This document shows positions 1,861 through 44,160 of a DNA stretch of 64,000 nt, in pieces. Under the pieces are notes generated by a model, which did not search any database, had not been told where the DNA came from, and saw only the letters and a list, made by a program, of their open reading frames with translations. Made by a program: the position numbers and the translations under genes. This DNA is from Marsupella aquatica (taxonomy: Eukaryota; Plantae; Marchantiophyta): NCBI GenBank assembly GCA_973895155.1, contig OZ316894.1, positions 26,335,240-26,399,239 of the forward strand. The letters run 5' to 3'. The stretch's first letter is position 1; each line of letters opens with the position of its first letter.

Positions 1861-4379
1861 AGCCTCAGAGTTTATTTTACTTTTTCATATAGTAAAGTAC
1901 TGAGAAGTTTGATAAAGTGCGAACCCTAATCTTGTTTGTGCATTTTTCTCCATGAAATGCACTGAATATTGCATAGAGGAATATAAGGAAAGGCATCAAG
2001 GAGTCAAATGAATTTTTGGAACTCATTGCGGCATAAGGAGTCGAGGGAGACTAATTTTCTGAGCGGCAAAATTCATGGCTTTGCAATGAGAGGCAGCATG
2101 AACTGGGAGGTAATTGCCAGTTCGTACACAAAATGTGGAAACGATGGAGCTTCGAAGTGAGTATATGGAAGATTATCTGAGATAAAGTTGTATCCTTTGA
2201 TTATACTTGACAAATTGGACCTACACATTGGATTAATCTAGGACTGACGAGGATTATTTTGTATTTCTTCGTCCACTTAACGAATGAGAAAGAATAATGG
2301 TACATTGTTTGGTTGGTCAGAGCTGATGTGTTGTGGATGCTTCTTGTCAACAGTGAGAACCTACCCATTGGATTCCTCTGGAGGACAGTCAAGAGGTCTA
2401 GTTTGTATTTAGTCGTCTACACGACAAAACAGAAGGAAAATGATTAAAGGGGTTGGTTGATGAGAACTTGGGGTGTTGTGACCCACAACCTTTGAAGTCC
2501 CCTGAACTACCACTGAACTCACCATAAGCATAACACATAGGACAACAAGTTTTCTCATTTTTGACCTGAAATGTCACACTTGTATCATACACTTTGGTAC
2601 ACAGAGTGGGCCAAAGACTGTCACTCCTCAACTCCCTACTCGCACGAAGGATAGTTTTCTCATTAGAAGTCCCAGAGAGGCGTTGGCTAGTTAATGAACA
2701 GCCGAACTTCAATTGGAATAACTCTTCACATTTGGGTAGAAGTACTCATCGTTAAGATACTCACACAGGTCCAAAGACCAACCTTCAAATTTAATCGATA
2801 AATGTCACCTTGTTTTGTAAATGCTCTCACCAATGACAAATATTTCGAACTCGACTGAACATATGCTGTCATTCTTTTCTTCGAGTCCCATAAGCAAGGA
2901 AAGGTGCACCTGTTAAGGATTTAATCATGACATCTAGTTTCGTTTCTCTTACTTCCCTCCACCGTTCTTTCCACTCGCAGCAGGAGATTTGAATCATACG
3001 AATCGGAAGGAAGAGCTATTAGGGATTTGTCAACTACACAAAAGTGGAATTACTACTTTCTGTCTGCCCTTCTATGCTATAAGGGGCTATGAGGAACCGG
3101 CTCAACAATCTGAAAGGGTTCTCCACATTCCAAGCATTCTGCAATCACCTCACCGGGACAGTTCTGTGGCTGGCGGCTTGCTAACTTCTCATCTTCTTTT
3201 TTCAGAGGTTTCCCATCTTCTTGATGCCTACTTGACAGCTTAGCGGTGTCTTGTTGAACATGCTGTTTCCTGGGGAGTTTGTGTTTCTCATCTTCATTTT
3301 GTGGTTTCAGGTGTTTGTGTAGGAGTTTGAATTTCTTGTCTGACTGTACATGCTGCTTTTCCAGTACTTCGGACGGGCTGGAAGAATAATATGAAGAGTA
3401 CATTATAAGTTTTTAGCAACGGTTCAAATCACTGTATTTAAAACATCCAAAGTTCAAAGTCCGTGCGTAGTACGTCATGAATGGGATGTTCGAACTTCAC
3501 TCTAAACAACAGAGTCTACCACTATCACCAGTTCGCTTTGGTTATTTGCACTGTTTCCGAGCAGTGGGACAATTCTTTCATATCAGAGAACTGGCCAGAA
3601 AACCAGGATCTACCCTCCGAGTTAGCTAGAGTTGCCCTGGCAAGCATTTCTTTAGTTAATTATATTATGCAATGAAGTGTGGATCTTTAGTTCATATCAA
3701 TGTTTGCTTAGATAATGATAAACGTAAAACACTATGTACATGAAAACCAATGCATTTTCTACCCGGAAAGAGATGAAATCCCACACGGCTCTTATTCAAT
3801 TTTCACTTCATAGTGGGGCTGAGAGCGGGTTTGGGGAGAGGGAAGTGGGGATGAAGAGCATAATTTGCGCCCAAGGAAGGCTCTTAGAGAAAGGATGTCC
3901 CTAAGACGGACCGAATCGGAAACAAAGCCAAGGGGTAGAAAAGCAATTGAAACGACTTCGGGAGCATGAGTTGAAGGCAAGCTGCAACAGAGGAAGTGAT
4001 ATAACACTTGAAGCACTATCCAGGAATCGACTGACTTGATCGAATATTTCATCACACAACCATGCTTTGAAATCCGATTGAAGACTTGAAGATAAATCAG
4101 AGTGAAATTCTTCGGCAATGAGCAGAGGATATTGTATAGAATCTCTAATGCCCCAAAGAACCTCGATTGCACAGTTGATCTTATTCAGGTCCTAACTGGA
4201 AGCTAGTTGGTTCAAATCATCTAAGGCTAAACTATCAACCATAAACGAAAGAGCACAGCAATGGCTGTTATCCACAGACTAATGTGCATTTAGGAACGAG
4301 ATCGACCGGTTCTATGGAAGGAGTTCATGACCAAACTCAGAGCCCTTAGACAGCCTCATTGTGGAAAAAGTCAGATTGC

Positions 4380-5543
4380 CTACATCGTGGCTTCTTTTTC
4401 TTGAATTTCTTTAAGCAACTGTTGCTTCAGCTGCTTGGCCTCCCTCTCAAGCGTTATATTATCCACCTGAGAATTTCCGGGGACCATGATTTAGAAACAA
4501 AGTCATTTGACGAAACAGTGCTACTGAATCTTGCTGAAAAGGACAGACTTCCTCTAAACAAGGCGAGATACATTCAATCAGAAAAAAATCATACCTAATC
4601 CAAGTCAAGGAGGACACAATTCGAAGAAAGGATGTGAGAACTTGAGGATAAAAATGCTGATAAAAACGAGGGACCGTCTTGCTACGAAACTAGGTGATTC
4701 AATCAAATATCTGTCACGTAAATTCCCGCTAGAATTCAAATCGGAGATTAATGGGGATGACCCGGCTTCGTCTCAAAGGCTATGCAATTAGGAGCAAGAC
4801 AGTGTTGCCTGTCAACGACGATTGCTGCAGACTCTACATTTTACCACAACAGATCTAGACAGTAACATATGTGCCCTCTTTCACATCCAATCAAGAAAGG
4901 TGACTCGTTTCTAAGTGGACAGCGTGGTACTGTGTGAGCGAGGACAAATGGTCGATTACGACATTGCTCATCACCAACTGAAATCCAGTCCGCATCTTAT
5001 AATCTATTTCAATGGCAGAGGACAGGAACGTACAATTCCTTTGATGGGGTCAACCGACCAACCCTAAGACTCAACTATTGCTGCTTGCTGACCGATGCAA
5101 TGTAAACCTGCGACGCCTCCTGTTAAAAACCTAATTAGGCGGAAACTTTCTAGTTCTGTTAACACTGTGAGCCCTCCCCCTTCACCATGTAGCACAAATT
5201 CCACCCATCCATCACTCAGGGCCTGCCTCCGTGAATTAGAGATACCATTCAGGAGAAAGGCACGATCGCTTAACACTCCAATCTACCCAGAAGTTGGAAA
5301 CACGGAGGCAGAGGAAGCAATAATATTACTCTCTCAAGCAAACCAGTCAGGCAGGCAGATCAGGCGGAAGCACCCAAAAGAAACGTGAAGAGAACGAAAC
5401 GAAAATTGGGAACAAACGAAAGGCGAAGAAAACTTCACATTTGCTTCGCGCCGCTCCGCCATCCAGACGACGAGATTGTCCAATGCTTTGACCCCGACAT
5501 AGGTACCCGCACAAAGCCCCACGAACGTGAAGATGCGCACCAT
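4380..5543 (-). CDS. Two-exon small single-pass membrane protein, 63 aa: MVRIFTFVGLCAGTYVGVKALDNLVVWMAERREAN|VDNITLEREAKQLKQQLLKEIQEKEATM; resembles the conserved plant At1g67785-like family
   Basis: Exon 1 is 5543-5439, followed by a GT donor (gtgaag). Exon 2 is 4466-4380, preceded by a ctcag acceptor and ending in TAG; the join is phase 0. The protein has a hydrophobic N-terminal helix and a charged helical tail. Length and the MV..F...D.+.VW+A pattern match my recollection of the 63-aa Arabidopsis protein (not database-checked). Confidence 0.75.
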
Positions 5544-5854
5544 TGCGCACGCCTGCGATTGCCTCCTCCTCCGGATTGATTGCTTCGCCCCTGGAGATGA
5601 GGTGATCCGTGGAACACCCTGATTCTAACGAAAGTTCTCCGAGTTGTCAAATAATGAAATCCGTGGAACACCCACCACTGGGTCGAAAATTTTATTCCAC
5701 CCTTTAACCACTATCAGTCCTCAGGATGGTCGAGAGCAGAGCGTACTTGCAGGGAATGTACGTACTTGCAGGGAATGTATGTACCTTACCTTTAGTGACA
5801 ATCAGGTTCCCTCAATTAATAAATAAATATTGAATTTTGTGACTTGCCACCCAT

Positions 5855-6390
5855 AAGAGAGGGAGAGAGGACCACCTCCAGAGCATGACCTGACCCAATG
5901 AGAGAGAGAGAGAGAGAGAGGACCACCTCCAGCATGCTCCTCTGCAGGGTAACCACAAGGGGGTAACCACAAGGGGGTAATGCTAAGGGATTCATCACAC
6001 CCCAGACCAGGAGGGAGAGAGGACCCATCTAACAGAATAGAGGATCAAATTCGGAACATGTTCCTCTGTAGGGTAGCCACCAGGGGGTCATACTCAGGGA
6101 TCCCATAGGGACTCAGACCAGGAGGGAGAGAGGCCCCATTTGACAGAGGATGCATTTAAAAATTCTTGTTAAATCTGTTTTAAATAAATACGGTACGAGA
6201 CGTTTACGTTTACCCAATATTTTCCACAAACCCCTTTGAGATGAATAATCTTTGCTGTGTGTTCTTTCCTCTGTTCTATCAGGATTAGTTTCCTGAATGT
6301 ATTCCAATTTCTTGTTTATTGATTATTCTCTTGATCAATTTAGTGTCAAATGAGAGCATGTGCCTCTGTAAGATAGCCACAAGGGACTCT
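5855..6390. repeat. Cluster of short imperfect direct repeats, probably a decayed non-autonomous TE
   Basis: gagagaggaccacctccag x2, cagaccaggagggagagagg(a/c)cccat x2, catg(t/c)tcctctg(t/c)agggta(a/g)ccac x3 and a (GA)n tract. Confidence 0.5.
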
Positions 6391-7483
6391 GGTTCAATGT
6401 CTCCCCCTTCTGGCCAACTGACTATGGCTAGTTGGTTAATAAATTAAATCTTGAAAATTTGAGTAAATGAGACTTTTTAGGCCATGTTTGTGAAACTGGG
6501 AAAAAAACAAAATCAGTGGTTTAGTGAGTTTTTAGTTTCTATTTGTTGTACTGGGGACTTTTGCAGGGGACTCAGGCTTTCTGGCTCCCCTGGTTTTTTC
6601 TGGGGTCTCTTGCCTTTTGGACACTCCTGGTTAAACCTTTGGTTTTTAGCAATGCGATGTATATATATATATAAACCAGTGATTATATTAGAACTATTCT
6701 TAGCATGTATCATAGTTTTCACTGCAAAAATTGATATTTGGAGAAACTCTTTAGGCCATTAAGCTTACACTAAAAATGTAAAGGTTTTGTGCATGTGCAA
6801 ACCTGATTGTCCCTACGCTGGTCAAGGGCTCTGGCTGCCCCATAATGGGCTTAAGCATTGACAATGTGTCAATGTACATATGCTCTGGGCATACGGGAGA
6901 GACCATAAATTTATGTTAAGGTCAGGTCTATTTTATGTCCATCACAAACAGCACAGAAACCTCAACAGACTCTATCCGTACAGAGCACAAACAGGACTCA
7001 CCCACATCATGCAGTGATGCCATCTTCATGCACAAAGAGCCATTAAGCAGGGTATAAACTGTTGCGCAACATACATAAAATGAAATGACATCTGATGACG
7101 TGACAGTAGTTGATTGGGTGTAAAATACTTTAGGTCAACTACTGACCTTAATGGTAAGTTAACTTCCATGACCATCCAAAAGCTATATCCTAATATCCGA
7201 GTGAAGCCCACCCAATATTTAGGGCAACATATCCCTGGAATTAAAGTCATTTTAATTTGCCATTGCCTGGCTGTCCTCCGAGGTTATCCTCACCCGCCGT
7301 CCACTGGCTTCTGCCCAAACCGTGCGTGATGATATCAAGTAAATAGTAGGAATTTGTAGCCCATCAGGTTGTGGGTGTTGTGGTAGACCATCTGTGTGGG
7401 GAGGTGGAGGTAGAACCCCACTGTGGGGGGCACATTGTTTTTTACACAAACCCCACCCAAAAGTGGGGTTCAAATGAACCTTT

Positions 7484-7891
7484 TGACATCTAGAGGGAAA
7501 CTATTTCATTTTCATTTTTGCGGGGAGCAGATGGACTTGGACAGGCAGCGGACAGTCCAAAAGCTAGGGACTTGCCAGGGACTTGTATTGCTGAATCACC
7601 CAACAATGAACAAGACAACAACAATGTTTTACTGGCTGTTACTTAGTTTAAGGGTGAGCAATGCAATTTTATGTGGCTCTAGACTTCCACTCAAACCTTG
7701 CCGTGTAGGTATCTTATTACTAAGGTTCCATATATATCTCCACCATTTGTAAGTTTCTATGGTGGCACTGCTGGAAGGTAATGTCTTAAAAGCATTCAGG
7801 GGGTCAGCACTTGTCTGAGGCCCGAATCTGCTTGATTTTATCTGATGCATTTGCTGTAATCACCACAGCCCAATTTTTTAAAATGGTAACA
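7484..7891 (-). repeat. Putative 3' LTR (~408 bp) of a Gypsy-like element
   Basis: On the minus strand a polypurine tract (GGGAGGAGAC, 7901-7892) directly precedes TGTTACCATTTT. The segment ends in ...TAGATGTCA (TG...CA) and contains a TATA-like gatatatat. No partner LTR was found, so the distal end is inferred. Confidence 0.55.
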
Positions 7892-9030
7892 GTCTCCTCC
7901 CAAATCCAACAAACAATTTAACATCTATCTATCTAATCAGGTATCTAATAGATCACAATCAAAAGATAGGATAAGGTCTATTGTCTAAAGTGAAGCCTCT
8001 TGACCATGACTTTGAGTGCATTGCTACAGTTGGGATGGAACTGGAATTTGCACAATGGTGCCATCTATATACAAGCAAATAAAGCTTGGGCAATCAATCA
8101 AAAATCTCATGTAGTTTGCTATGAAGAACCAAAAACACACTTAAAGGTCTTCAAACTCGGTATTCGTTCCCGTAAAGAACAAGTTGGGGTTGGTTTGATA
8201 CATAAAAACACAAATGAGAGTTTAAGAACTCTCTTTAACACATAGTAATCAGAATTGATTACTTTAATAAGGTATTTTGAAGATCGCTCCACAGCGGTGA
8301 GTAGTTTTCAATGATAACTCAGCATCAGGTAACCATAAATTAATGAAAAAGGAATGATTAACAAAACACAAGAGAAAATAATCTCAAAGTACGCTAAGGG
8401 AGTCTGGAATAGACCAAGGTTACTCCTTAGACATAAGTCAAAATGAAAAAACTTAAGGATTCAAATCCACGTTTGCTTTTCAGATCTAAACTGCTTACTA
8501 GAGTACCTTTTAAAATGTCGTCAGCATGTCTTATCCTTTCTTTCTAAGTGGTACTCAGATAAGATCTAAAAGAGTGGCTACTTCAACATTTAGATGGTAC
8601 TAAGCAACATGAAAGAAAATCCATCAATTTCAATGAGACTTAAACTCAATGAGTTAACTTTAAGAACTCAGGAGATTGCAATGAGTCACCAACAAGGAAT
8701 CTGTCATCACAACTCAAAAGATTTGCACAAAAAGAATTTTACTTCCTATGATTTATTCAAAGAATTAAACCACAAGAAGGAGGAAAGTCTTCTCCTGGTG
8801 TCAAGCTTGATCTCGAACTCTTAACATTCATGTCAACTGGCAGAACACCAAGGAAAGGCAAAAATTGCTAGACTTTACCATACTTCTACACTAGTGGTGG
8901 AGGGGTCTTATAGTAAAATCCTACAGGGTAAGAGGTCATAGGGTCGAAGAGACATGCCTCTTCATACTCCTCAAAAAGTCAAAACAGCGATTCAGTAAGT
9001 GAAAAGCCGGGAAATGGCTAAGTAAGAACC

Positions 9031-9091
9031 CGTAAAAGCGTAAAAGCGTAAAGACGTAATCGCGTAAAAGCGTAAAAACGTAAAGGCGTAA
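9031..9091 (+). repeat. Array of 8 CGTAA motifs downstream of the accessory ORF
   Basis: cgtaaaagcgtaaaagcgtaaagacgtaatcgcgtaaaagcgtaaaaacgtaaaggcgtaa. Confidence 0.9.
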
Positions 9092-9309
9092 TCTGGTGAA
9101 TGCGGTAGACTTAAAGACTTACCGAATTCAACTATTTTTAACTTTCTACTCCTGGCTCGGAAAATTCTGAAATTTTGCCAGTAGGTTTTCCTAGGTACAG
9201 GCTACACACTAAATAAGTTTCATAGCTTTTAAAGCTCTATAACACATTTTGAAAAATAGGGAAAGATGCACTATTCTTAAAACTTAACTAAAAAGACTTA
9301 GATTTTGCC

Positions 9310-11739
9310 TCAAGCTTGTTGTCGGATATCTTCTGGTTCGAGTAGCTCCACGAGGGTAACAGTCCGAGCTTGAGTAACTTCCATCAGCTCAGCCTGGCGT
9401 GGGGATCCTCGAGAGTAGGGTAGGCATCTCAATTGCCTTTCAGGATACATCAGGGGCATTCTTCTCCTTAGATAACATATGTCTATTCGACGAGCTTCTC
9501 TATATATCCCAATCACGTCATAATTATTGCAAGTAGCAGCATATACTTGGGGATAATGGTATAGAAATTCATCAGAGTTCAGCATCCTGGAATAGAAAGG
9601 GTGAAGCCTCCATTTGACATCTCTGAAATACCGATTGAAGTTGGCCAGAGTTTGAGAGGTGACATTGTTCCAGATTCTCTGTTTCTCAGCTAATGAACTG
9701 GTTGAAACAAGGGTAACCTTGGGCTCTCGAGGAAGGTAAGCGTTCTGGGGAGAAGTAGATTTCTTACTCTGCATGAGAAAAGAAACCACAAAATCTAGGG
9801 CATAAGCTGCCAAATTTCCAAAATATGCCAGAACTAAATCTGAATCCTCCACCTCCACATCTCCTTGAAGTAGCATCACAGCAAGAATGGGTCGGAAATA
9901 GAGAGAGTCAGTCCAGAACTCATCGAATTGTGCCATCTCCAGTCTGGAAGTTCCAAAACACCTGAGGTCGAAGATATAACTGGCCTCTGTCTTCTTGAGA
10001 TAGTAGTATTTCCAAAATTCTCCAACCGGTGGTCTGTTGGCCTGCATAATCTTACAGGTCTCCACATACCTGTGCACTTGGGACTCGGGATGTCTCGGGT
10101 ATCTACTCTCGATGGTGGCATTCCGAGGTGTTTGAGTAGATGAAGTGACAACTGCTACTAAGTTTGGATTGGATCTTAAGGCAGTATCAACATCTTCAAA
10201 TCCCTGCCTTGGGGATGACTCAAGAGAATTATCATAAGATCTATAAGTTTCACCATCTGAGGGTGGATCAGAGTCTTCAGGTAGATCTTCTCTGTCAAAA
10301 GGGTGCTCATATTGTGACCGATTGTAGGTGGGTCCTTCTGTGGGTTCGTAGTTGGAATCAGGGCTGTAAGGTTGTGAACCTAGGCTAGAAGTAGGACTAG
10401 CAGTTGGACATTGTTGGACCAAGTTGCGGACCACAGATGCTATCTGTCGAGGTTCACACTGTAGTAGTTCTAACAAGTCATCCACAATAGCCACACAGCT
10501 GATACTATCTGTTATTGGAATGGGCTCACTTGTTTCTAGGGGAGGGGGGTGTACAGTGATAGGAGTACAGATCACAAACTCCATTGGTGCTGGTTCTCTT
10601 GGGGGAGAGGTTATTCTGACAGGGCTTAGCTGATCATGAAATGGTGATCCCAAACTAACAGCCTCCATTCTCAAATTATTAACAGCATCATATAGTCCAT
10701 CATCACTACAACTGAGGAGAGATATCAACTTATCAATAAGCTGCTGATTCGACTCTGCCTTCGAAGGAGTGGACCTGGTGGTCTCATGAGGAGCAGCATC
10801 AGTTGGTGTAGCATCATCGTCTTGTTGATGAATGCTCCTTACTTCTTCAGCTTCTAGTGGATCTGCATCCATAGTCCGGCTAGGGAAATTCTCATTACTT
10901 ATTGATTGGCAAACAACTTCCCTGTTATGCATAGGAGAATGTGTAGGGATTTCTAATGAAGTATCCTCCATAGGAACATCAGCATTCTCCTCAACGTTCT
11001 GATCATTCGAATTCAATGGGGTGACATGTACAATGTCCTCCATAGGAATTTCTTCTTCAATACCCAAGTCAATCAGGAGTAACCCCCTCTCTGTCTCTTC
11101 CTCCAGATATAAACAGTCATGAGTATAATAGAGCTGAGAGAGATAATTCTGTAAGCAAGTGGTCCTCCCTGCTTCCAAGCTCCTTACTTGATCCTTCATT
11201 ACATTAAACAGAAGTAGGGCCCAATTTACTTTTATAGCTCCACTATGAGCAGCTACAATGGTGTTAGCCAAGGCCACAGGACAGAGAGTTGGCTTTTTTG
11301 GATGAAGAATGGGTACCAGAAATTCCATGAGCACTCTCAATTCAGGATAAGTACACTGGGACAAGTTCCAACCATTCTTGGCATTTCGAGTTCCTGAGAA
11401 GTATGGAGCAGATAAGTCCTGCTTCTTGGAATATAACGCCTCTCCTTCTGACGGGCATCCAAAGGCGTAAGCAATTTGCTCAACAGTCCACAGGCTGGGG
11501 TGAGCTCGAATCGTTTGCCTGAATTCAATCGGGATGATAGTCCCCTTCACAAAATCTTGCAAGTAGGAGTCGAGCTCGACATTCCAGGGGATCCTGAGCA
11601 AGCGCTCCAATCCTAAGTGCTGTAAAGAGTCTTGTAAATTAGAAAGACTATCAGGCGCTCGTGGTATGCGAGCTGCCACTACTTTTGAGACTGCTAGAGC
11701 TTCAGTTTGATACTGTTCCTCAGCACCCAGGTTCGCCAT
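9310..11739 (-). CDS. Intronless ~809-aa TE accessory protein, starting MANLGAEEQ
   Basis: The ORF is uninterrupted. Its N-terminal domain (LLRIPW...TIRAHP..WT...F..TRNAKNGW...C...FLVPILHPKKP...NTIVAA...VNW...YLSQLY) resembles retrotransposon-associated bryophyte hypothetical proteins (PMD/Transposase_28-like; inference). It has an acidic, Pro/Ser-rich middle and a second aromatic-rich C-terminal domain. The track's 12087 start is a non-ATG read-through across the upstream motif array. Confidence 0.7.
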   Translation of the reverse strand: MANLGAEEQYQTEALAVSKVVAARIPRAPDSLSNLQDSLQHLGLERLLRIPWNVELDSYLQDFVKGTIIPIEFRQTIRAHPSLWTVEQIAYAFGCPSEGEALYSKKQDLSAPYFSGTRNAKNGWNLSQCTYPELRVLMEFLVPILHPKKPTLCPVALANTIVAAHSGAIKVNWALLLFNVMKDQVRSLEAGRTTCLQNYLSQLYYTHDCLYLEEETERGLLLIDLGIEEEIPMEDIVHVTPLNSNDQNVEENADVPMEDTSLEIPTHSPMHNREVVCQSISNENFPSRTMDADPLEAEEVRSIHQQDDDATPTDAAPHETTRSTPSKAESNQQLIDKLISLLSCSDDGLYDAVNNLRMEAVSLGSPFHDQLSPVRITSPPREPAPMEFVICTPITVHPPPLETSEPIPITDSISCVAIVDDLLELLQCEPRQIASVVRNLVQQCPTASPTSSLGSQPYSPDSNYEPTEGPTYNRSQYEHPFDREDLPEDSDPPSDGETYRSYDNSLESSPRQGFEDVDTALRSNPNLVAVVTSSTQTPRNATIESRYPRHPESQVHRYVETCKIMQANRPPVGEFWKYYYLKKTEASYIFDLRCFGTSRLEMAQFDEFWTDSLYFRPILAVMLLQGDVEVEDSDLVLAYFGNLAAYALDFVVSFLMQSKKSTSPQNAYLPREPKVTLVSTSSLAEKQRIWNNVTSQTLANFNRYFRDVKWRLHPFYSRMLNSDEFLYHYPQVYAATCNNYDVIGIYREARRIDICYLRRRMPLMYPERQLRCLPYSRGSPRQAELMEVTQARTVTLVELLEPEDIRQQA

Positions 11740-11909
11740 AGCTGCAACGGTGATTTGCTTGCTGCGAAGGTTGCTTTCGAAGAGAAAGAGCAAGTGAATA
11801 GGGGTGGTGAAAATACAGGAGTGAGCGCCTGAACTCTGTGCTTGATTCCTATCAAGGTATGAAGTCCCCAATCCGTTTCTAAGTCCCGTTGCGAAGTTAG
11901 CCGTAGCGC

Positions 11910-12000
11910 CGTAACGTGAACTTTCCTTAAACGCGTAAGGCGTAAGCCGTAATCCCGTATTGGCGTAAACTCTTAACAGCGTAAACCCGTAAACCCGTAA
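11910..12000 (+). repeat. Array of 8 CGTAA motifs (plus variants) upstream of the accessory ORF
   Basis: cgtaacg...gcgtaaggcgtaagccgtaatcccgtattggcgtaaac...gcgtaaacccgtaaacccgtaa. The orientation matches the 9031 array but the spacers differ. Confidence 0.9.
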
Positions 12001-14407
12001 CACTTGGCATTTTAACAGCAACAGCAGGCTTAAATACTGTAAAAAGTTTAAATTTTTCAGTAATTTCAGGTTTTCGGTATTACCCAATACTCACAATCAA
12101 GCTAGTCCATGAAATTCTCTGTGATTTCACAAATTTCAAGATCTTACGTGACACTGAAAACATTCAAGTATTCTGCAAACTATGCGAACAGTGTGTGTCA
12201 ATAGTGGCATTCACACCCAACTCTTGTTATATACAATAGATAGATGCTAACTATTACAATCAATCATAATCATTGCATCCATATATAATATTCAATCCTG
12301 GTGCATATCCATAACCTTGCAATAAAAGTCTCCAAGAGATATGGGAAAACTCTTGTGGTCGATAAGAGTGTTTTTTGGATTTACATGTGGACCAATAGAA
12401 ATGTAAAAATGCGACGAGTGACATGACCCATTATGCCACCCTTCATGTAAACTAACTTTTGCCAATATTCCAAAACCCTGAGTATATCTAATATCTAGTT
12501 GTCTTAGCCCATGATTACTTCTAAACAAATTGTAAACTTTCTGCTAAAATGGATAGATTGTACTCTTGGGTTGATCAGACATGGAACGGTCTAATTCTAT
12601 ATTAATGTACCGTCCCAGGGTTTCTGTCACCTCTTTCGTCTCTCCTTTGAGCACGCCTCAGGCCTCCACAAGCCACTGTCTGCTAAGATCTTATTGTCCA
12701 AGATTTGTCATATTCACATTGAGTAACTAAAATCACCCCAGGCATGTACCTTGCAACATTAGTCTATTCTAGAATAAACTGGGTGGCTATACCTAGGTGG
12801 GTTGTCAGAAATTAAGGCTCTATCGTGAAGTCACAAGTGAACAAAGGTGGGCATCTATGATAATGCTAATGATAAACAAACAGACATATAGCACCGTACC
12901 AATCATTCTCGCCCAGATCATTCCGCTCCCATGGACTTTCATGTTTGCTGAAATGCTTGGATATACTTTGCAACCCGGTTAGAGTACAGCAAAACCCTCT
13001 TTTCTACTCTTATACAGTACATGTTACAAACCCGGTTACAAAGTTGAGTCACTCAATTCAGTGACCTACATATTTCCAAAGTTGTACTGTACTCACAAAT
13101 TTCTGACATGAGAAATTTGTAGGTCACTAAATTCTAAATGCAATTGGACCATACTAGGCGTTTCCCTTGAGATCAAAGCTAAATACTCAAAAGTTTTGGA
13201 AGTGCAAAGTTTGGGTGGTGAATAATGGACTAATCTTTAGAAATTTATGATTCTCAGTCTCTGATCCTCATGAAAACTAGAGAAACTAGCTAGATATATT
13301 GGTTGTAAAGACCTTTCCAAGATGCTTTTAAGGAGAATGATAGAGCAAATTCTGGCTGGATATCAAAGGATGTATTGAAGGTCAAACTCTGGTGTTGACA
13401 ATTGTTGGAAGCGAGAACTCGGCAACGAGTGAAAGTTTCAAAGGTGTCGCACTCCATGGGGGTTGCATGGTTAAGTTCAAGGGCTCGGTCCATGGGAGCA
13501 TCTATTTCAACACATAATTGGTTTTTACATCTTTTGATAGAGGGGGAAGGGGAGGATTTACAAAAATTCTCAAGAAAATTGCATTTTTCAACATTTACCC
13601 GACACATTGTAGTGTGAGAAACTTGATCAAATTTAGAAAATAATACATGAAAAATTTAATCGGGAAGTGTTTCTTATATGTAGGATGTTCATCCTAGAAC
13701 AGTAATCAGTTTCTGCTTTGTACCAATGGAAGAGTCTCTTAACTCCCCCTGTATATCCAAAGAAACATCACTTCTAGAATGATTTTCCCATATCAGGGTT
13801 GCAAAAAATCGTTATGAACATTTCTAACAACAGTTTGATGTCATGGGAGCCTTTTTTCAGACCGTTCAATTTGAAAGCCATGATATTTTAATAGAAGCAA
13901 AAAGAAATTTGACTAGGAAATAGCTACAACTTCTAAATATTAACTTAGTTAGTAAAGTTTTCATGAGTTGTAATACATCAAGGAGATATTTTCACAACTA
14001 TCTGGGTGTGGGAGTTCACTTTCAAAATATACACCCTAGTATCTTATCCACACACTAGAATATCAGTTCCCCCCAGCCAATCATAGGTTTGTGAATTGCC
14101 ATCCGGCCGGAAGAAATCCTGACTGTTTGCTGAAAAACTTTTTTGATTTCTGTCATGTTTGATCGACCAAAAACACCTCCTTGTGTGCCCTTGACCTTGC
14201 GCAGTTGCCATTCATGCCTTGCCCTAGCTAACTGTGCAAGGCACGTACATTAGCTCGTGGATAAGGTAGTTTGGAAGTCCATAAATATTCAATATCAGGA
14301 AACATGGGGCATTCTTTAATTATGAGATCGGGTATGAGATAGGTGAATGGGCCACAAGAGAAGGATGATTACAATGTGAGACAATCTAAGACTAATATAT
14401 TAATATA

Positions 14408-14860
14408 TCAAACTGCCAAAAAACAAAGGGCACCCAACCAGGACACATGATAACACAAGCAAAAGTCCCAATCAAAGGGAGGCAACCAAAAGCTCCCACA
14501 AGTTCAAAGGACCCACGCAGAAGCCTTGTACAACAACAACAGGAAACATAAGAACCTAAACCCTACCTATCTGCAAATAGAAGCGCCTGGTAAAACTCCA
14601 GTGTGAACTACAAAGGGGGGTCAAGGAAAGGAATCCCACTAGAGTACATAGGGGGTCCAGCAAAGAAATACTACTAGAGTACAAAGAGAGTACATAGGGG
14701 GTCAAGCAATGGAAATCCCACTCGAGTACATAGGGGGGGGGGGGGGGGTCAAGCAAAGAAATACGACTAGATCGAGTACATAGGGGGGTGCAAACAATGG
14801 AATCTGACTACTGTAGAGTCCCTACCACCTTCTGCCTCCCTTTGGTTTTTGGCAGTTTGA
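14408..14860. mobile_element. MITE-like element with ~23-bp TIRs and internal tandem repeats
   Basis: The ends tcaaactgccaaaaaacaaaggg and ccctttggtttttggcagtttga are reverse complements with 1 mismatch. gagtacatagggg..tcaagcaa is repeated ~4x inside. No clear TSD. Confidence 0.7.
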
Positions 14861-15143
14861 AGTTATATAGAATAGAGAATTCCTGAGCCCCTGAGAGACA
14901 GACGAGATGCTTCAGGTGATGTGTCTTCTGTTTCTACTCGAATTGAACGACTTTGAACATTTTTGTGTAATTGCTGGAAGCGCTGGTTACAACTTCCAGA
15001 ATATCTTACAAGGAGGATTCATGACTTCAGGTTTGATGCTGTCTTCTTATTACAGTGTAATAGGACAGTACATAGATCCGTTTCCAGTTTCCAGCCCAAG
15101 AGCACCTGCAAGACGACATAGACGAGGAGCCAGCGGGATTCTC

Positions 15144-15261
15144 GAGGACTCGAAATGGAATGCAGCCCGAAGAGTGCGAAATCAGGCAGACAGGTTACCT
15201 TGAGGACTCGGAATGGAATGCATCCCGAAGAGTGTGAAATCAGGCAGGCTGGTGACCTTGC
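15144..15261. repeat. 58-bp tandem duplication
   Basis: gaggactcg(a/g)aatggaatgca(g/t)cccgaagagtg(c/t)gaaatcaggcag... x2. Confidence 0.85.
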
Positions 15262-16420
15262 TGCTCCAAGCGACGGACCTGCACATAGGCGTGGAGCGAC
15301 AACGTAATAATTGTGCGATCACGTGGAACTGTACTCTCTCTCGCTGAAAACAATCTCCTGCTGGCCTTGCCGTCGAGAGAAAGCGAAGTGACTCAGTGAG
15401 GGAGCGACCGAGGCTGGCCGGGGAGATCAGGGCTAGCTGAGATTTTCTGAGCTTCTGTCATCAGTTGTGTGAGTGCCTCACAGGGAATTATGCAGCATGC
15501 ACGGTAATGAAGATTTGGGTTGACGAAAACCGAAGCGGCAAAGGCGGAATTTCTAGTTATGGCCGGTGAACGAAAGTCAGTCGGAAGTCGATCACTGTAG
15601 GAAGGTACGGTAGTCAAGACTAGCAGGTTCCATTTCAAGGAACGAGGATGCGGTGGGGAAGACGGAAAGTTGACGTCTAGCAATCGGAGCCGGAAGCGGA
15701 GCCCTGCAGTGCGCATTCCGGCTGGCACGAGGATCTACACTGATCCCTGTCGTCAGGCTATGTACATTCTACTAATGCTCGAGTTGTGAGAGATTCCTCC
15801 TCGCCAGAAGCAAGGAAGCGAGTGTAGGAGATGCCTATACATCAAATGTGTTTTCAGTTAATGAAGCCGCTGACGTGACTGTGTGATACCCTTCGATCAG
15901 AGCGCTGGAAACTTTGACCGTTCATTTATCCGACATGTGTCTATCCAAACTGGCTAGCTTGCTATCAATGATGGCGCCTGCTGAGAGATGAGACTAGTAA
16001 GTTTCTACTGTTTTGCAATACCAGTCCATTTTACGTCGGTCGGCTTTCGCGTTTCCTTCTATCATGTCTATGGATCACTGTGGCAAGCTCACTCGTGTTC
16101 TGAAACGTAGAGTTCAATTGTAGGAATGAAATTGACTATATGTGGTCCTTATTTCTATATTTCATGCCCCAGCCCAGCTAGTCTGAGCAAGCTGGTCTGA
16201 GCATTGTGTTCAAGTTCCAGGACTTTTGCTCCCGCTTTTGCTTCGGCGAGCTCGCGGGACCCATTTTTAATCGAGTGGGCACTTTATCGTGGGGTTTTTG
16301 CACAGATCTGCAATCACAAGTGTTGACGTACTGCATGCGAATTGCTTTTGGGAAGGCTGGGATTCCCTCAAGCGTGGACGCAGCAGCCGTATTGAGCTGC
16401 CAGGGGCTGGCTCAGTAACG

Positions 16421-19213
16421 ATGGTCAACGATAAATCAATAAGAGGTCTGACTGGCTCCAGGAATTGGCATGGAACCGCGCATGGATCTAGCGACGAGAA
16501 CCTGAGATGCGGACATTACCTCCTTCTGTTGCTCCTGGTCCCCACACTCTCCTCTGTGTTCCACTTCTGCGATGCTGCGAACAGCATTGCGACTGACACT
16601 TCAGCTTTGTTAGTTTTCAAGCAGTTTGCCGACCCAGGTGGCAATGTGCTGATCTCGTGGGATAATAAGACTAGTCAGAGTCTTTGTACCAGCTGGAAGG
16701 GGATTAAGTGCAACGCGAAAGCGACAAGAGTAGTAGCGGTCAATTTGTCTGGCTTTCAGCTCTCAGGTACCTTCAATAAGGGCACTTTGAGCAACTTGAG
16801 TCAGCTAAAAAATTTGGATGTTTCCAAGAACAACTTCCAAGGATCGATGCCAGATGATCTCGGAAATCTCCTACATCTGCAGCAGCTGCTGGCGGTGAAT
16901 GCTCGATTCTCGGGCTCCTTCCCGAATTCCTTGGCCAATAGCACCAGACTAACTATAATGAGCTTGGCCGGCAATAAGTTTTCGGGACGGATTCCAGATC
17001 TTAATGGGCAGAGTGCAATGCTTTCTCTGGACTTCAGCTCAAACACTTTTTCAGAAAGTATACCTGCGCTGCCACCGATTGTTCAGAACGTTAGTCTGAG
17101 TAACAACCTTTTGAAGGGCAGGATTCCTTCCTCGTTTCCCTCCAGCCTGATAAATCTAGATTTGAGTAACAACCAGTTGTCAGGATCGACTCCTCCAAGC
17201 TTAGTAAATGTCCCACATGTTTCTCTTAATGGAAATACGCAGTTGTGTGGACGTGGTACTCCAAATCCATGTCCAGGCGCCAGGCGGGCCCTGGCGTTGG
17301 CCCTTGGCCCGGTCCCAGCTCCTGCGCCACTCCCAGGGAAACACAAGAAGTTTAGCACAAAGGCAATAATTGTCTTAGTCATAGTTGATATCATAGGGGT
17401 CTTGCTGCTAGGTGGTGGACTTCTCTTGTACTTATCAAAGGTCGCCTCATTCAAGAACTTTTTTCAAATTTTCGCCGCCAAGGAAACCCCTGTCAAGCCA
17501 CCATCCCCAGCAGATCCGTCAGGAACGGGAGGAATGATTCCTGAAAACGAAAAAGCCGAACTAATTTTCGTCGACGAATCTACACACGATTTCGAGTTGG
17601 AAGAGCTGCTCCGTGCATCCGCGGAGATATTGGGAAAAGGCAGCTTAGGGACGACGTACAAAGCCCGTCTGGACAACGGACATATGGTTGCTGTGAAAAG
17701 GCTGAAGGACGTCAAGGAGATGCCCAAGAAGGATTTTGAAACAACGATGAATGCTTTGGGACAATTGAACCATCCAAATCTTCTTCCACTAAGAGCCTAC
17801 TACTACACCGAAGAGGAGAAGCTTCTCGTGTACGACTACATGTATAATGGAAGTTTAGCTTCCGTTCTTCACGGTAAGTACATGAACATTATCTTGCTAG
17901 ATCTTGTACGTAGGTCACCGCATTTAAAAAATCGTTGTGTGTCACTGGCTACTCTCACCTCGCACGAAATTCTAACCGTCCATACACTTGGAGTAAGTTA
18001 AACTTTGTGTTCCTTCTGAATACCGAGTGTAGTTAGAACAGTCAGGAGCTTCAGGTTAGAGTTCAGTCTAGCTAGATTTCTGACATATATTACACTAGGC
18101 GATAACCTGACCCGTGATTTCAATACTCGCAGTCTATTTCTGCTCCTTCTTCTGACCTGTGTTTTTGAACCGAAGGTGCTGGGAGAGAAGAAATCTCATT
18201 CCCCTGGGACAGCCGACTGCAAGTTGCCTACGAAGTGGCACTGGGACTAAGTTTTCTGCATCAGACCTTCCCACCGCAGACGATTCCTCATCAAAACTTG
18301 AAGTCGTCTAATGTTATCATTGGCAACAACTATGAGGCGTACTTAGCGGACTTTTGTCTCGTGCCTCTAATGCCTCCACGTATAGCTGCCCAAGGGATGA
18401 CAGGTTACGGAGCTCCAGAATACAATCGCTCCAGAAAACGATCGGAGAAGGCGGACATCTACAGCTACGGTGTTCTGCTTCTAGAACTCTTGACGGGTAC
18501 GTGCGTCTCTCTTTTGAATTCCTACTTGTGTCCTACCATTCATAACGAGCTGGAATTAATGTGCTCATTATAAATAAGCTCGGTCAGAATAACTACACTA
18601 ATACTGCATTCGTCCTTTGATAATACGGTAGAATGGCCACTAACATTTCATGGTTGACGGCACGCATTTATTGTATTTATCTCAGCGTCAACTCCTAGGA
18701 CTCTCCTTCACTGATTCAGGGTAGATTAGTTAATTAGGGCCCTATTGCCAACTTTGACTATCAACTTCCACACTAAGTCTGCATTTGACGCTAATTAGTA
18801 CCCATGAAAGGTACCGATGAGGGAAAGTTGACCTGATCGATAGTGTGTCCTGTTTTCGTGTATTTTCAGGCAGGAAGCCCACACATGCATCTTATCCGGA
18901 TGGTATTGACTTGCCAAAATTTGTGAAAGGAGCTGTGAGAGAGGAATGGACTGTAGAGGTCTTCGACTTGCAGCTAAAGACCAGTAGGGATGGCGATGGA
19001 GAGATGGTGACAGTCCTACAGATTGCAATGAGATGTGTGGACGAAGATCCGGATCAGCGCCCATCATTATCACAAATATTGAAAGTCCTTGAGAACTTGA
19101 AACAGGCCAAAGCAGCTTACATGGATCCTTCGCAATCTGGCGACTTTAGCAGTGGTCAATCTGATGCCAGAGAAGTACATCTTGATCATGATTCCGCTTC
19201 TTTCTCTCGTTGA
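16421..19213 (+). CDS. Leucine-rich repeat receptor-like kinase, LRR-III/PRK-like atypical (pseudo)kinase; exons 16421-17873, 18176-18496, 18870-19213
   Basis: Signal-like hydrophobic stretch, LRRNT (W...C.W.GI.C), plant LRRs, GN..LCG cap and a TM helix. The juxtamembrane reads FELEELLRASAEILGKGSLGTTYKA, followed by VAVKRL. The catalytic loop is HQNLKSSN with DFC. The C-lobe has VREEWTVEVFD. GT-AG introns keep the frame. Confidence 0.93.
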
Positions 19214-36970: not shown

Positions 36971-37826
36971 ATGATGTATATTGTCTATCTTGTGTTAGAT
37001 GGGTCTGCTTTTAGTTTCAAGACAAACAAACAAAAAATGGACAGAAACTTAGTGTCATCACAATGGTGTCAAATACAGGTCATTTTAGCAATGAAACTGT
37101 AAAGATTATATCTTTTGCAGCAGTCTATCCAAGCCTTCCCGTCAGCCAATTTTTTCTTGTTTTTCCAAATTAGCCAAAGGTCATTTTAGCGAGGGAACTG
37201 CAAAGAGTATACCAAGCAAATTGCATCTTTTGCAGCAGTCTATCCAAGCCTCCCAACTTGCCATTTTTCCTAGTTTTTTAACAGTAGCCAAGGTGTCCAC
37301 TAGCTCTAGAAGGACATGAACTCTACAAGGAAAGGCCTTTGGCTTAGTTATTCAGTAGGGATAGTCAATTATCTAGTATTTTCTAGTGGTTTATAGTAGT
37401 TTCTGGCTAATCCTCCCCCACCATGGATTTGGTGGTGGTGAATGGGAATATTTCAAATTTTAGCCCTACTACCATGGCTAGCCTGTTTTTTGAAAGGAGG
37501 TTCTTGGCAACTAGTTTGGGGACCCCATCTCCCTATAGAGATTCTTAAATTCGATGAGAGACAAGTACTTGGAAATATTTTTTTAAATGTTATATCAAAG
37601 TTATGTGCAGGGTCATATGCCTTGTTACATGAGTCCTATTGACCACCTATGATTATGCATGTGAACAAAACATGTGGGATTATGGAGCAACTTGGAAGAG
37701 AAGGAATTTGCATCTTGGTATTAGTTCTCATCACGCTTCTCCCTGATTTTGAATTGCTTTTACCTTCATGATCATTGAAGTTAATCTTAATTGTCTAAAT
37801 CAACTTCAATCATATATCCTTTCCAT

Positions 37827-38171
37827 TGTTGAGCATCGACGACAATCGCAACGGCAAGCCCATGAACCATCCAACGCACAAGAGTCAACACAGAGAGATA
37901 CGTGGTTCACCTCCACATGAGGCTACGTCCACGAGAACACACAAGAGCTTTACTGCACTCTAGGTCGACCGGCCATACCAAACATCCACAACACAAGCTC
38001 TCTCTATCTCTCAACTAGCTCCGTAAGAATGAGCCTGAGTTCCACCTCTCCAAGCAAACACCACTTGGTTATAGAGTGTGCACAGCATGACTAACCTAAC
38101 CAAGTCTGCAACTAAGGTTAGCCTTAACTACGGTACAGTCGTAACTCTAGACCTAAGAGTAAATCCTAACA
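37827..38171 (-). repeat. Copia 3' LTR
   Basis: 345-bp direct repeat of 44161-44504. PPT (rev-comp AGTCAAGGGGGAGAT) is adjacent from 38172. Confidence 0.95.
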
Positions 38172-38834
38172 ATCTCCCCCTTGACTCTGGTCTAGGGAGG
38201 GTAAAGACTGCACCCTATATAATTGCTCAGCGGGAAGTTCTGGAAAGAAAAACCAAACTGGTTTTTCCCTCTTTATAAGAGAGTAGACCAGAACTAAGTC
38301 GTAGCCTATACAAGGAATGAGCAAGAGCATATCTCAGTATCTACACAAATATTAAGTAACCCTACTTGTGAGGCAATTGCAAAACCTTGTCGTGTTCATA
38401 CATATCGCTACACAACATACATCGCTTGTCACATACATCCAGACATAGTCACACTGCCACATCACAAACACAAGAGAATGGAATACAAGTGGAACTCATG
38501 TCCACACATGTCCAAAACCCACAATAATCTCCATACAATCGGCACAACGATCCCGGTCAACAATACCCCATCGATCCCGCACCGATCCGATCACACACGT
38601 ATGTCAAGCCAACGCACCTTGCTACTCAAGGAATCCACGTTACACAAGCGGAGCTCACAGCCATCATAGCCACTCAAGCTCCTCTCTCTCCAAGGCTCAA
38701 CATTGAAAGATGACCTTTCAATGCCTCACAAGTGAGAAGTACCCTCTCACACAAACCTGACGGAACCTTATCGGCTCCAATAGCACTCATACCAAATGTA
38801 CATACTCTAATAGCACGATATACTACTACACTAC

Positions 38835-43145: not shown

Positions 43146-44146
43146 ATGAGAAAATCACGAAAAAATGACGTTTTTCACAACTTCTCAAAAAACTCAAAAC
43201 TAATCACCGCTGCGTAGCCCACGAGGCTAGGAGTCCACGAGGCTCCCCCTGGTCACATCGGATAGCTCTTGGAGCGAAGCGCCCTCGGGTCGCCCTTGGA
43301 GCGAGGCTCCCTTTAAGTCGCCCTCTAAAACCCTATTGCTACAAAAATCCCGCCGCAATTCCCGGACAAAGTTACTGTTCACTAACTTTGTCATTTTCCT
43401 TGTGCCCTAGGTCGCCGTCGCACCTCACCTCTCCGCGGTGCGCAAAGTTGCCGTAGGAAACACAATTTGCCAACATCCAACATTGCTTGTTGCTGCCAAT
43501 TCCACGAGTAAAAATGATGATCGCCGATGGGGAAAAGTTGCCGAATTGCACCGGCATAATCTGCGAGCTCAGTAGAGAAAAAATCTTCCGTCGTGTCACA
43601 TTCACTCCGCGTCAAGTGCCAATCCCGGACTCAAAATGACCGTCTTGACGCGATCAAAACATTGAGCCATAGCATTTTGCGTTTCTTCCTCCAAGATGGA
43701 CGTGACGACGAGTAACCCGGTTCAGATGAAAACAAGCTCCATAGCCTGTGAAAAAATCTGAACGTCTCCTTCACTCGTCATGACGCACTCGGTAACCATT
43801 CGACAGCAACTCAACTACCAAAATGAACAGCTCGCTTTAACCTCCAACATGAACTATAACATGCGACGCCTCCTGCACCGCACAACTCAAACCATTGAAA
43901 AAATGATCTCTGGTTTCTCCCCTGAAATACCGTCGAACACAAAAAAACTCCAGATCGACGCAAACTTTGATTCCTCCGCACCACGGATACCGATCAGCGA
44001 GTTCTAACCACCGTTAGAAAGACCTCTCACTAATCTATCCGTTCAGCCACACACATTCAAGTTTCATGCGACGAAACTCTGAATGTAACACCGACAATGA
44101 ACGCTGGAAAACCGTCACAAAAAAGACCTCGTCACCTCCTAGGCAT

Positions 44147-44158
44147 GCTCTGATACCA
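44147..44158 (-). promoter_or_regulatory. Primer-binding site complementary to tRNA-iMet
   Basis: gctctgatacca is the reverse complement of TGGTATCAGAGC and lies 2 bp inside the 5' LTR. Confidence 0.9.
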
Positions 44159-44160
44159 AT

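Follow-up and report, generated by a model that had tools for sequence, protein, structure and literature searches.

A CGTAA-array-flanked accessory ORF in a probable LTR-retrotransposon remnant of a liverwort: a candidate VANC-like protein-plus-motif module

Architecture of the locus and its parent element

The window analysed here, a 64-kb stretch of 64,000 nucleotides from the liverwort Marsupella aquatica, contains a high-copy unit dominated by one long open reading frame (ORF) with an array of short CGTAA words on either side. The features considered below, in window positions, are:

8110..12165, minus strand: high-copy unit of about 4.05 kb, an orphan LTR-type remnant containing the 809-aa ORF, delimited from the depth profile
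8110..8115, minus strand: LTR-type 3' end, ...ACTACA on the sense strand, at a repeat boundary; the same hexamer terminates the LTR of the homologous locus L002
8908..8913, minus strand: TATA-like CTATAA, a candidate LTR promoter from its sequence, about 120 bp downstream of array B
9031..9091, plus strand: array B, eight (G/A/C)CGTAA with an exact 8-bp period, 219-279 bp past the ORF stop
9092..9520, no strand: stretch with retained CpG next to array B, on its ORF-facing side
9310..11739, minus strand: accessory ORF, 809 aa, uninterrupted, with a 67% identical full-length homologue (P0001)
9313..10134, minus strand: C-domain, aa 536-809, conserved and helical in the model and homologue comparison, without a recognised fold
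10135..11049, minus strand: linker, aa 231-535, acidic, P/S/T-rich and variable by sequence and homologue comparison
11050..11739, minus strand: N-domain, aa 1-230, with a predicted VANC21-like fold and Transposase_32/ATHILA-like language-model features
11431..11909, no strand: stretch with retained CpG that covers the 5' UTR and roughly the initial 100 codons
11902..12000, plus strand: array A, eight CGTAA with CGTAG and CGTAT variants, 171-261 bp upstream of the ATG

The left border of the unit is sharp: summed contig depth in runs X1/X3/X6 rises from 618/655/38 in bin 8055-8105 to 38,369/52,421/2,423 in bin 8106-8156, a 60- to 80-fold step at 8106-8110 in all three runs, and an LTR terminus ending in CA (8110) lies at this boundary. 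The right border is bracketed only to about 12140-12170, with an X1 contig of depth 82 starting at 12140 and the depth down to 97/85/0/0 by 12423-12839. A scan of 7000-14500 recovered no PBS behind the 8110 end (at most 11 of 18 positions agree with the PBS of L002), and no PPT was found between the ORF stop and array B. Likewise, tblastn with the L002 gag and pol queries over 5000-17000 gave no gag or pol near the ORF, the 64-kb window holds no second LTR copy, no TG..CA pair with a target-site duplication uses 8110, the search for such pairs yielding only ones at chance level, and none of the 22 flanking frames of at least 60 aa encodes a transposase. The absence of gag-pol, PBS and PPT from this copy is consistent with an orphan LTR or a truncated copy.

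The parentage of the unit is indicated by L002, a complete Ty3/gypsy element in which the homologue of the ORF is the extra ORF, encoded in sense between pol and the LTR. Its domains are ordered RVT_1, RT_RNaseH, Integrase_H2C2 and rve, with a gag-like frame, called by eye, at 8171-10852, and with the PPT at 6560-6570, the TG start at 6574, the CA end at 7564 and the PBS at 7576 (all in L002 coordinates). A single RNase H region together with a sense 3' extra ORF is compatible with, while not diagnostic of, the Athila clade (OTA non-chromovirus). Thus, the original prediction of an intact retroelement accessory ORF of about 809 aa is borne out, and the window unit is likely an orphan piece of a high-copy Ty3/gypsy LTR retrotransposon; its description as an LTR-element remnant stands on the LTR-type end at 8110 and the L002 homologue, with just one LTR-type end demonstrable. 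Because no PPT separates the stop from array B, the ORF might lie inside the LTR. In X1 the ORF and the central portion of the LTR-like part have similar summed depths, as would fit such a position; X3 behaves differently, and contig depth does not equal copy number. The region from the stop to the LTR end fails to align with its L002 counterpart (score 34; shuffles up to 42), and the LTR comparison therefore draws on layout plus the shared end hexamer.

CG-containing words on an 8-bp register

The two eight-copy arrays had been predicted at these distances from the ATG and the stop and in the same orientation, and were recovered as such. Since every array CGTAA is on the plus strand, the word reads TTACG on the sense strand of the ORF; across the element 18 of the 19 CGTAA share one strand. 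All seven intervals of array B are exactly 8 bp, and array A has its eight CGTAA at 11910-12000 with intervals of 24, 7, 7, 16, 16, 8 and 8, i.e. an 8-bp register apart from two steps of 7 bp. The filler between the words varies in letters and keeps its length, so that the "different spacers" originally noted differ in letters and are held in length to the register. The best cluster contains 8 CGTAA per 100 bp, as against at most 2 in 60 first-order Markov simulations of the whole window, while the window total shows no enrichment (68 vs 55.8 +/- 7.3 expected). The two arrays can be aligned with each other at 72-76%.

A reading of the arrays as RNA hairpins was ruled out, folding being no better than that of shuffles for either array B (z 0.76) or array A (198 of 200 shuffles fold equally well or better).

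Among copies of the unit the arrays are the most variable stretch, with a depth about one-fifth to one-half of that of the flanks. Diverged contigs span array B in X1 and X6, and in others it is replaced or different: the deepest X6 contigs have other sequence at the array position, and in one X3 contig a 20-base CG-free stretch replaces 9051-9124.

A new observation is that both homologous loci examined also carry CG-word arrays on the common 8-bp register, built from differing words: RCGCTA at L002 and YYCGAG at L001. CG pairs at multiples of 8 bp number 61 of 178 in the window element (z 8.5), 66 of 192 in L002 (z 9.4) and 20 of 41 in L001 (z 6.7), whereas z lies between -2.5 and 1.2 in six control regions of the window. 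On both strands together, the window element, L002 and L001 contain 19, 2 and 0 CGTAA and 2, 21 and 0 CGCTA, respectively; TCGAG is not exclusive to L001 (12, 8 and 12). The N-domains of the three ORFs are only 37-43% identical, and dense same-orientation arrays differing between families are present at all three loci, the number on which word-protein co-variation rests. The arrays are upstream of the ATG and upstream of the TATA-like box in the window element. L002 carries arrays in its leader and LTR, within the coding sequences of pol and the extra ORF and, in degenerate form, ahead of that ORF; the L002 arrays have 16-24-bp higher-order blocks in common. Different words on one 8-bp register are poorly explained by a single host factor such as NAC. 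The shared period could itself descend from one ancestral tandem repeat.

The encoded protein and its predicted folds

Relative to P0001, both terminal domains are better conserved (77% for the N-domain, 76% for the C-domain) than the linker between them (52%). Of the 24 variant sites listed for the ORF, 13 fall on third codon positions (P 0.03; best-supported 40 of 1,326 rows). No RNA record was listed as containing the sequence, a result without bearing on expression. A HMMER scan gave 328 matches at E <= 0.001, of which 150 are listed; word-index protein searches recovered only P0001 or two short proteins. In viral contigs, none of the 21 pattern matches of one search and none of the 49 of another proved to be relatives; in metagenome contigs 2 of 79 did. 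The ORF has no Pfam match at E <= 1, DUF1985 and PMD included, and thus none above the curated cut-offs for Transposase_32, ATHILA ORF1 or PMD. Of 50 aligned family members searched at E <= 0.1, none matches DUF1985 or PMD and one matches Transposase_32 (PF20167; E 0.005). Nothing significant came from searches of PDB sequences. Language-model (ESM) features place the N-domain closest to Transposase_32 (0.91) and ATHILA (0.91; 17% of the members of the ATHILA cluster), a score resting on 156-168 of 256 shared features and to be taken as a lead only.

The N-domain is modelled with a pLDDT of 94.7. Among 48,161 chains its best structural match is VANC21 in the VANC21-DNA complex (Z 7.2, rmsd 4.2 A, 198 of 230 residues, model range 10-230, 9% identity), with a second comparison giving Z 7.7 over 202 aligned residues; these values are middling, Z 7-8 being, according to the search tool, the usual top score for models without a clear match. 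The runner-up chain has Z 4.4 over 59 residues. In Foldseek, VANC21 is the sole listed row with a TMq of 0.37 (the rest <= 0.16), at a non-significant E of 2.1. The C-domain gave no usable match in PDB Foldseek (E 0.67), VIA (Z 3.7), the viral set (E 0.86) or the ESM atlas (best 0.86), which does not amount to proof of a new fold. Thus, of the two folded domains put forward for such searches, one ranks VANC21 first and the other is without a usable match, and the "PMD-type" affinity suggested earlier draws on structure, with none of its support coming from Pfam. VANC had been proposed as the analogue ahead of any fold modelling.

CpG retention, a candidate module and known systems

With the arrays excluded and the borders taken from the by-eye limits of the original prediction, CpG o/e is 0.68 (P 0.006) in the 9092-9520 patch, partly through Arg codons and codon junctions, and 0.76 (P 5.5e-5) in the 11431-11909 patch, which includes synonymous NCG codons (6/26 vs 5/187, P 6e-4). 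The element background stands at 0.29 and the repeats of the host genome near 0.2-0.3; the scarcity of CpG noted by eye in the ORF middle (0.24) and in the 8000-8900 region (0.35 at 8000-9030) was confirmed. In fixed 400-bp flanks, the CpG richness claimed for the surroundings of both arrays is found on the ORF-facing sides (0.61 and 0.73) and fails on the outer sides (0.26 and 0.35). Beside four of the five L002 arrays o/e is 0.33-0.78, against 0.07-0.11 in its pol, gag and distal LTR, and the array inside pol has no halo (0.06 and 0.12). Hypomethylation caused by the arrays is therefore not established, the halo being one-sided here and absent at the L002 pol array. Both the window element and L002 retain CpG most strongly at the ORF 5' end, and promoter-type CpG retention at this end explains much of the excess. 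CWG shows no depletion in the element (o/e 0.89-1.57), and non-CG decay is therefore uninformative.

We consider the chances evenly balanced that an LTR retrotransposon here carries a VANC-like module, protein plus motif, specific to its family. The predicted VANC-like N-domain would bind the element's own CGTAA arrays, perhaps with one protein loaded per 8-bp step and cooperatively along the register. The bound protein would then shield the ORF promoter and the LTR promoter from silencing, through exclusion of methylation, recruitment of an eraser or simple transactivation, with the C-domain speculatively serving as an effector or oligomerisation module. Word and protein would co-evolve, such that each family rescues only itself. 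This reading is favoured by VANC21 topping the ranking of the modelled fold, well above the next row, by the 8-bp periodicity of CG pairs at all three loci as opposed to the control regions, by words that differ between relatives, by the strand bias of CGTAA, by arrays ahead of the ATG and the TATA-like box, by domains better conserved than the linker and by the third-position variants. The analogy originally drawn retains the accessory ORF, this top match and the family-specific words, while its CpG halo proved one-sided or absent. Against it weigh the middling Z, the 9% identity, the Foldseek E of 2.1 and the missing DUF1985/PMD Pfam match; the one-sided CpG excess, the haloless L002 pol array and arrays that are the least conserved part among copies; and TCGAG being shared by all three loci, with VANC words CpG-free and mainly non-coding.

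The arrays might instead be enhancers for host transcription factors, for which the NAC CGT[AG] core and a bZIP half-site are candidate sites, with the ORF an ordinary Athila-type extra ORF doing an unrelated job and CpGs surviving at unmethylated active promoters. The promoter-like positions of the arrays and the peak of CpG retention at the ORF 5' end in both elements suit this view, as does the frequency of tandem arrays in the non-coding DNA of non-chromoviruses (PMC6317226). However, three words on one register would demand three host factors obeying one spacing rule, the L002 word is also found inside pol and the ORF, and the element's own ORF has a domain whose predicted fold is like that of a sequence-specific DNA binder; we deem this account unlikely. 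The same fold and word evidence would equally serve a protein that binds its own arrays without anti-silencing, tethering cDNA or the intasome to chromatin, marking family DNA for its own enzymes or repressing the element. The haloless pol array and one-sided window halo agree with such a role, and PMD proteins act in silencing too, MAIN/MAIL1 mutants releasing it (PMC5418596). We hold it to be quite unlikely, given the concentration of arrays at promoter-like sites, the CpG contrast between the flanks of four of the five L002 arrays and its pol, gag and distal LTR, and an anti-silencing factor as the nearest solved structure. Finally, the arrays may be neutral by-products of an ancestral 8-bp tandem unit, which slippage and template switching at the reverse-transcription stage would have copied to new sites and made uniform. 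While the alignability of arrays A and B, the higher-order blocks of L002 and the variability or replacement of arrays among copies point this way, the CG core has been retained in a genome with CpG-poor repeats, the filler conserves length and not letters, and a single word occupies all sites of an element, coding DNA included, making this explanation distinctly improbable.

A broader version of the VANC-like module reading is offered tentatively, as more doubtful than probable: LTR retrotransposons of non-seed plants might use a family-private, VANC-type anti-silencing code, in which a VANC-fold protein would polymerise along an 8-bp grid set by a CpG-cored word, forming a physical shield against methylation over the promoters, word and protein would diverge jointly, and relocation of the gene inside the LTR would let orphan LTRs supply it in trans. 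On this version the VANC/PMD fold would have been a retrotransposon counter-defence long predating VANDAL, and Athila-type extra ORFs would gain a function. Should the module reading itself hold, LTR retrotransposons, which dominate the repeats of plant genomes, would possess family-specific counter-silencing, the VANC fold would exceed dicot Mutator elements in age and spread, and the three protein-word pairs under one spacing rule could serve as compact means of protecting transgenes from silencing. No function is assigned to plant Ty3/gypsy extra ORFs in the reports cited (PMC7264820, PMC6317226), and a 2026 paper treats a role of Athila extra ORFs in shaping methylation as open (PMC12844716). 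In the literature cited here, the sequence-specific anti-silencing factors (VANC, TnpA, AtMu1 transposase) all belong to DNA transposons, and retrotransposon homologues may be mentioned in the VANC21 structure work, Sasaki 2022 EMBO J and the supplements of the PMD paper.

The closest known counterparts are VANC21 and VANC6 of Arabidopsis VANDAL elements (PMC5735166; PDB 9LNJ/9LNK), which like the window ORF are accessory proteins with conserved domains and a variable linker, their core fold being alike by prediction only. VANC targets are same-orientation, high-density motifs (PMC5735166), and VANC words are likewise short, dense, on the same strand and different between relatives. However, VANC is described as MuDR-encoded and dicot-specific (PMC13547354), in Mutator-like (VANDAL) DNA transposons, whereas the window ORF belongs to a liverwort unit with an LTR-type end and a Ty3/gypsy homologue. 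VANC words are of 8-9 bp, CpG-free and mainly in non-coding DNA, in contrast to a CpG-cored word of 5-6 bp that recurs on a fixed 8-bp grid, and VANC has a DUF1985 domain, whereas the window ORF is without a DUF1985/DUF287 Pfam match. Extra ORFs of non-chromovirus OTA Ty3/gypsy elements include Athila ORF1 (PF03078), Transposase_32 (PF20167) and the Ogre PMD (PF10536), to which neither a function nor a cognate DNA motif is assigned in the accounts consulted (PMC6317226, PMC7264820, PMC11728184). The L002 homologue shares their sense 3' position between pol and the LTR, whereas the window ORF may sit inside the LTR and has a C-domain without a recognised fold. Among PMD proteins, the PMD-A clades are Gypsy-encoded, and PMD-C, reported to be structurally similar to the DUF1985 domain of VANC, acts at specific motifs against Polycomb silencing; PMD-C proteins are angiosperm host genes acting at promoter motifs, their direct DNA binding being stated as still to be demonstrated, in contrast with a phased 8-bp array located within the very element that encodes the protein. 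Foamy virus Tas binds both the LTR and the internal promoter. Its likeness to the window ORF is one of logic only, with an accessory gene 3' of pol and a second promoter region that could respond along with the LTR (PMC7828637); the foamy virus is an animal retrovirus, and no kinship in sequence or fold is expected. Fast-evolving repeats in the cis-regulatory part of LTRs resemble the window arrays in type of location; those repeats form hairpins and attract siRNAs, whereas the window arrays are direct repeats accompanied by an encoded candidate reader.

The accessory frame and its flanking arrays

The original prediction of an uninterrupted frame of about 809 residues was borne out: the minus-strand ORF at 9310-11739 runs unbroken through 809 codons. 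CGTAA shows no overall enrichment in the window (68 occurrences against 55.8 +/- 7.3 expected), and 16 of the 68 are grouped in two plus-strand clusters, array B past the stop and array A upstream of the ATG. The densest CGTAA cluster in 60 Markov simulations held 2 per 100 bp, and the two predicted same-orientation arrays thus stand. Split into 8-mers, both hold to an 8-bp register, the filler units being equal in length but made of other letters, and across the units CGTA is near-invariant, with variation at the flanking positions. The spacers, predicted to differ, vary in their letters, whereas their length is fixed to the register. RNA folding of neither array was better than that of its own shuffles.

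Features of the window
6116-6322, minus: ribosomal protein S15 fragment (Pfam E 1.9e-8), likely a plastid DNA insertion; surroundings AT-rich, with high contig depth
9031-9091, plus: array B, eight CGTAA, all intervals 8 bp
9310-11739, minus: accessory ORF
11910-12000, plus: array A, CGTAA intervals 24, 7, 7, 16, 16, 8 and 8 bp
14408-14860: MITE-like, 23-bp inverted repeats (96%) flanking ~35/46-bp tandem units; depth raised
16421-18001, plus: LRR receptor-like kinase first exon
37825-44504, minus: degenerate Ty1/copia element, LTRs ~350 bp and 97-99% identical, gag-pol broken; CpG-rich at 43000-44000
44500-53300: remnant of a foldback or CACTA-like DNA transposon, with nested inverted and direct repeats of 70-72-bp tandem units; CpG very low

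With the arrays left out, CpG o/e is 0.68 at 9092-9520 (P 0.006) and 0.76 at 11431-11909 (P 5.5e-5), both stretches having the borders of the original prediction, against 0.29 in the remainder of the element. Fixed 400-bp flanks give 0.61 and 0.73 on the ORF-facing sides versus 0.26 and 0.35 on the outer sides; hence, CpG retention near both arrays holds as predicted, but only on the side of each that faces the ORF. At the ORF 5' end the excess includes synonymous NCG codons (6/26 vs 5/187, P 6e-4) and therefore reflects more than protein constraint, while at the 3' end CpGs fall in Arg codons (6/12, not significant) and codon junctions (3/7, P 0.03). Since CpG o/e across the window is 0.5-1.1 in gene-rich parts and ~0.1-0.4 in repeats, the patches look like often-unmethylated DNA.

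The ORF lies in a high-copy element. Summed public-contig depth, taken from four of the six listed runs across the region and from three runs at the left edge, reaches thousands to tens of thousands at ~8100-12100 (X1, X3) and is mostly in the tens in the unique flanks. The left edge is abrupt, from 618/655/38 in bin 8055-8105 to 38,369/52,421/2,423 in bin 8106-8156 (three runs), and coincides with position 8110, where ...ACTACA closes the sense strand. On the other side, the boundary is bracketed near 12140-12170. As no TSD, PBS, PPT, second LTR or gag/pol was found at this copy, it is an orphan, which would be a ~4-kb solo-type LTR enclosing the gene or else the 3' half of an element with an eroded PPT. 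The evidence leans towards the former in that no purine tract lies between the stop and array B. At 8131, run X1 contains some contigs that carry the distal LTR-like sequence of the element but run on into another PBS-like stretch, rich in G, which may be the 5' LTR junction of a sister family. In contig comparison, copies of the element differ most in the arrays: array B has about one fifth to one half of the flanking depth and is bridged by diverged contigs in X1 and X6, the deepest X6 contigs have different sequence there, one X3 contig has most of it replaced, and one contig each of X5 and X1 carries extra array units.

Homologous loci and the shared register

One metagenome scan yielded two relatives among 79 pattern matches, the contigs L001 and L002. 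L002 is a complete Ty3/gypsy unit of 10,852 bp (123-bp terminal overlap) in the order RT-RH-INT, homologous ORF in sense, PPT, LTR (TG at 6574 to ...ACTACA at 7564), PBS and gag-like frame. Its ORF is 39% identical to the window ORF over the best segment, the stop-to-LTR-end distance is about 1.1 kb (1.2 kb in the window element), and in both an array lies 220-360 bp past the stop. PPT-like tracts lie on either side of the extra ORF (3757-3767 and 6560-6570), and TG comes 3 bases after the latter only. Losing this second tract would shift the LTR start upstream and enclose the gene within the LTR, and giant gene-bearing LTRs may arise in this way.

Arrays of the homologous loci
L002, 637-699: RCGCTA, in pol (pol/protease region)
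L002, 5068-5130: RCGCTA, inside the extra ORF
L002, 6740-6810: RCGCTA, LTR
L002, 7992-8030: RCGCTA, leader
L002, before the ATG: degenerate RCGCTA
L001, before the start and inside the extra ORF (1409-1472): YYCGAG

CGTAA is nearly missing from L002. Coding DNA also holds arrays, both in L002 (637-699, 5068-5130) and in L001 (1409-1472). In L002 the array in pol lacks a CpG halo (flanks 0.06/0.12), whereas the other four have flank o/e of 0.33-0.78 vs 0.07-0.11 in pol and gag. Against 300 density-preserving shuffles, CG pairs at multiples of 8 score z 8.5 in the window element, 9.4 in L002 and 6.7 in L001; six control regions at period 8 give z -2.5 to 1.2, and at period 7 the z of one control rises to 3.9. 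The N-domains (aa 1-230 in the window ORF) of the three ORFs are 37-43% identical to one another, and the common 8-bp period may be inherited. On the proposed check for co-variation of motif and ORF clade, three words on one register are seen at three loci (n=3); TCGAG is frequent in the window element too and not exclusive to L001.

The encoded protein and its predicted action

HMMER against 1.84 billion representatives recovered 328 relatives at E <= 0.001. Among the 150 listed, many of them fragments, most match aa 15-230, about a dozen match the C-domain (aa 536-809), and only P0001 and P0040 match both; identity to P0001 is 77% in the N-domain, 52% in the linker and 76% in the C-domain. 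Calypogeia fissa is the annotated source of two homologues, the two among 20 proteins looked up to which an organism name was attached, and a liverwort is therefore the probable host. In different relatives (P0006/P0155, P0014-P0084) the N-domain is fused to unrelated C-terminal parts (helical, coiled-coil-like by eye, or a tail rich in W/H/C), which suggests modular swapping of effector domains.

A Pfam search of the ORF gave no match, and the language-model neighbours of the N-domain are the Transposase_32 and ATHILA clusters (0.91). The N-domain model is confident (pLDDT 94.7, 125 sequences), and of 48,161 solved chains the one that it matches best is VANC21 bound to target DNA (Z 7.2 and rmsd 4.2 A, with 198 residues aligned in the range 10-230), the next row having Z 4.4 over 59 residues. 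Comparison with 9LNJ gives Z 7.7 over 202 aligned residues, and Foldseek places VANC21 11th (E 2.1), yet with the top listed TM-score (0.37 vs 0.16 or less). By the search tool's own caution, Z 7-8 is common for models without a clear match; the VANC21 match is weightier as it covers the whole domain, stands alone and concerns a family named beforehand. Of the two domains proposed for fold comparison, the N-domain may point to VANC21; the C-domain model (pLDDT 80.9, 14 sequences) had no match in structure searches.

As the most likely reading, we propose that the N-domain would recognise the word of its own family and load at 8-bp steps along arrays positioned at the ORF and LTR promoters, that the loaded protein would hold both promoters active against host silencing, and that word and protein would drift together. 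We consider this proposal about evenly poised between right and wrong, its binding, cooperativity and silencing outcome being inferred. That the arrays are instead enhancers for host factors appears unlikely; self-binding of the protein to the arrays for another purpose is slightly less likely, and neutral tandem repeats are the least probable explanation.

Comparison with known systems

VANC21 targets dense YAGTATTAY arrays in one orientation, VANC6 recognises other words, and each demethylates its cognate copies (PMC5735166); VANC is reported as dicot-specific and structurally homologous to MAIN (PMC13547354). PMD-C shows similarity to DUF1985 and has its action at motifs (bioRxiv 2024.09.27.615353), PMD-A in angiosperms is Gypsy-encoded (PMC5418596), and self-activation extends to other DNA transposons through TnpA and AtMu1 (10.64898/2026.08.24.746577). 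Extra ORFs without known function are described in PMC7264820, PMC6317226, PMC11728184 and PMC12844716; further related literature includes PMC4728375, PMC7828637 and PMC8756742. Among the papers listed by literature searches, no title or abstract opening describes an LTR retrotransposon that combines a protein of the VANC fold with arrays cognate to it. In its layout and its predicted fold the window locus parallels the VANC/VANDAL system without being a VANDAL itself; what this analysis adds is the swap of words on a conserved 8-bp grid.
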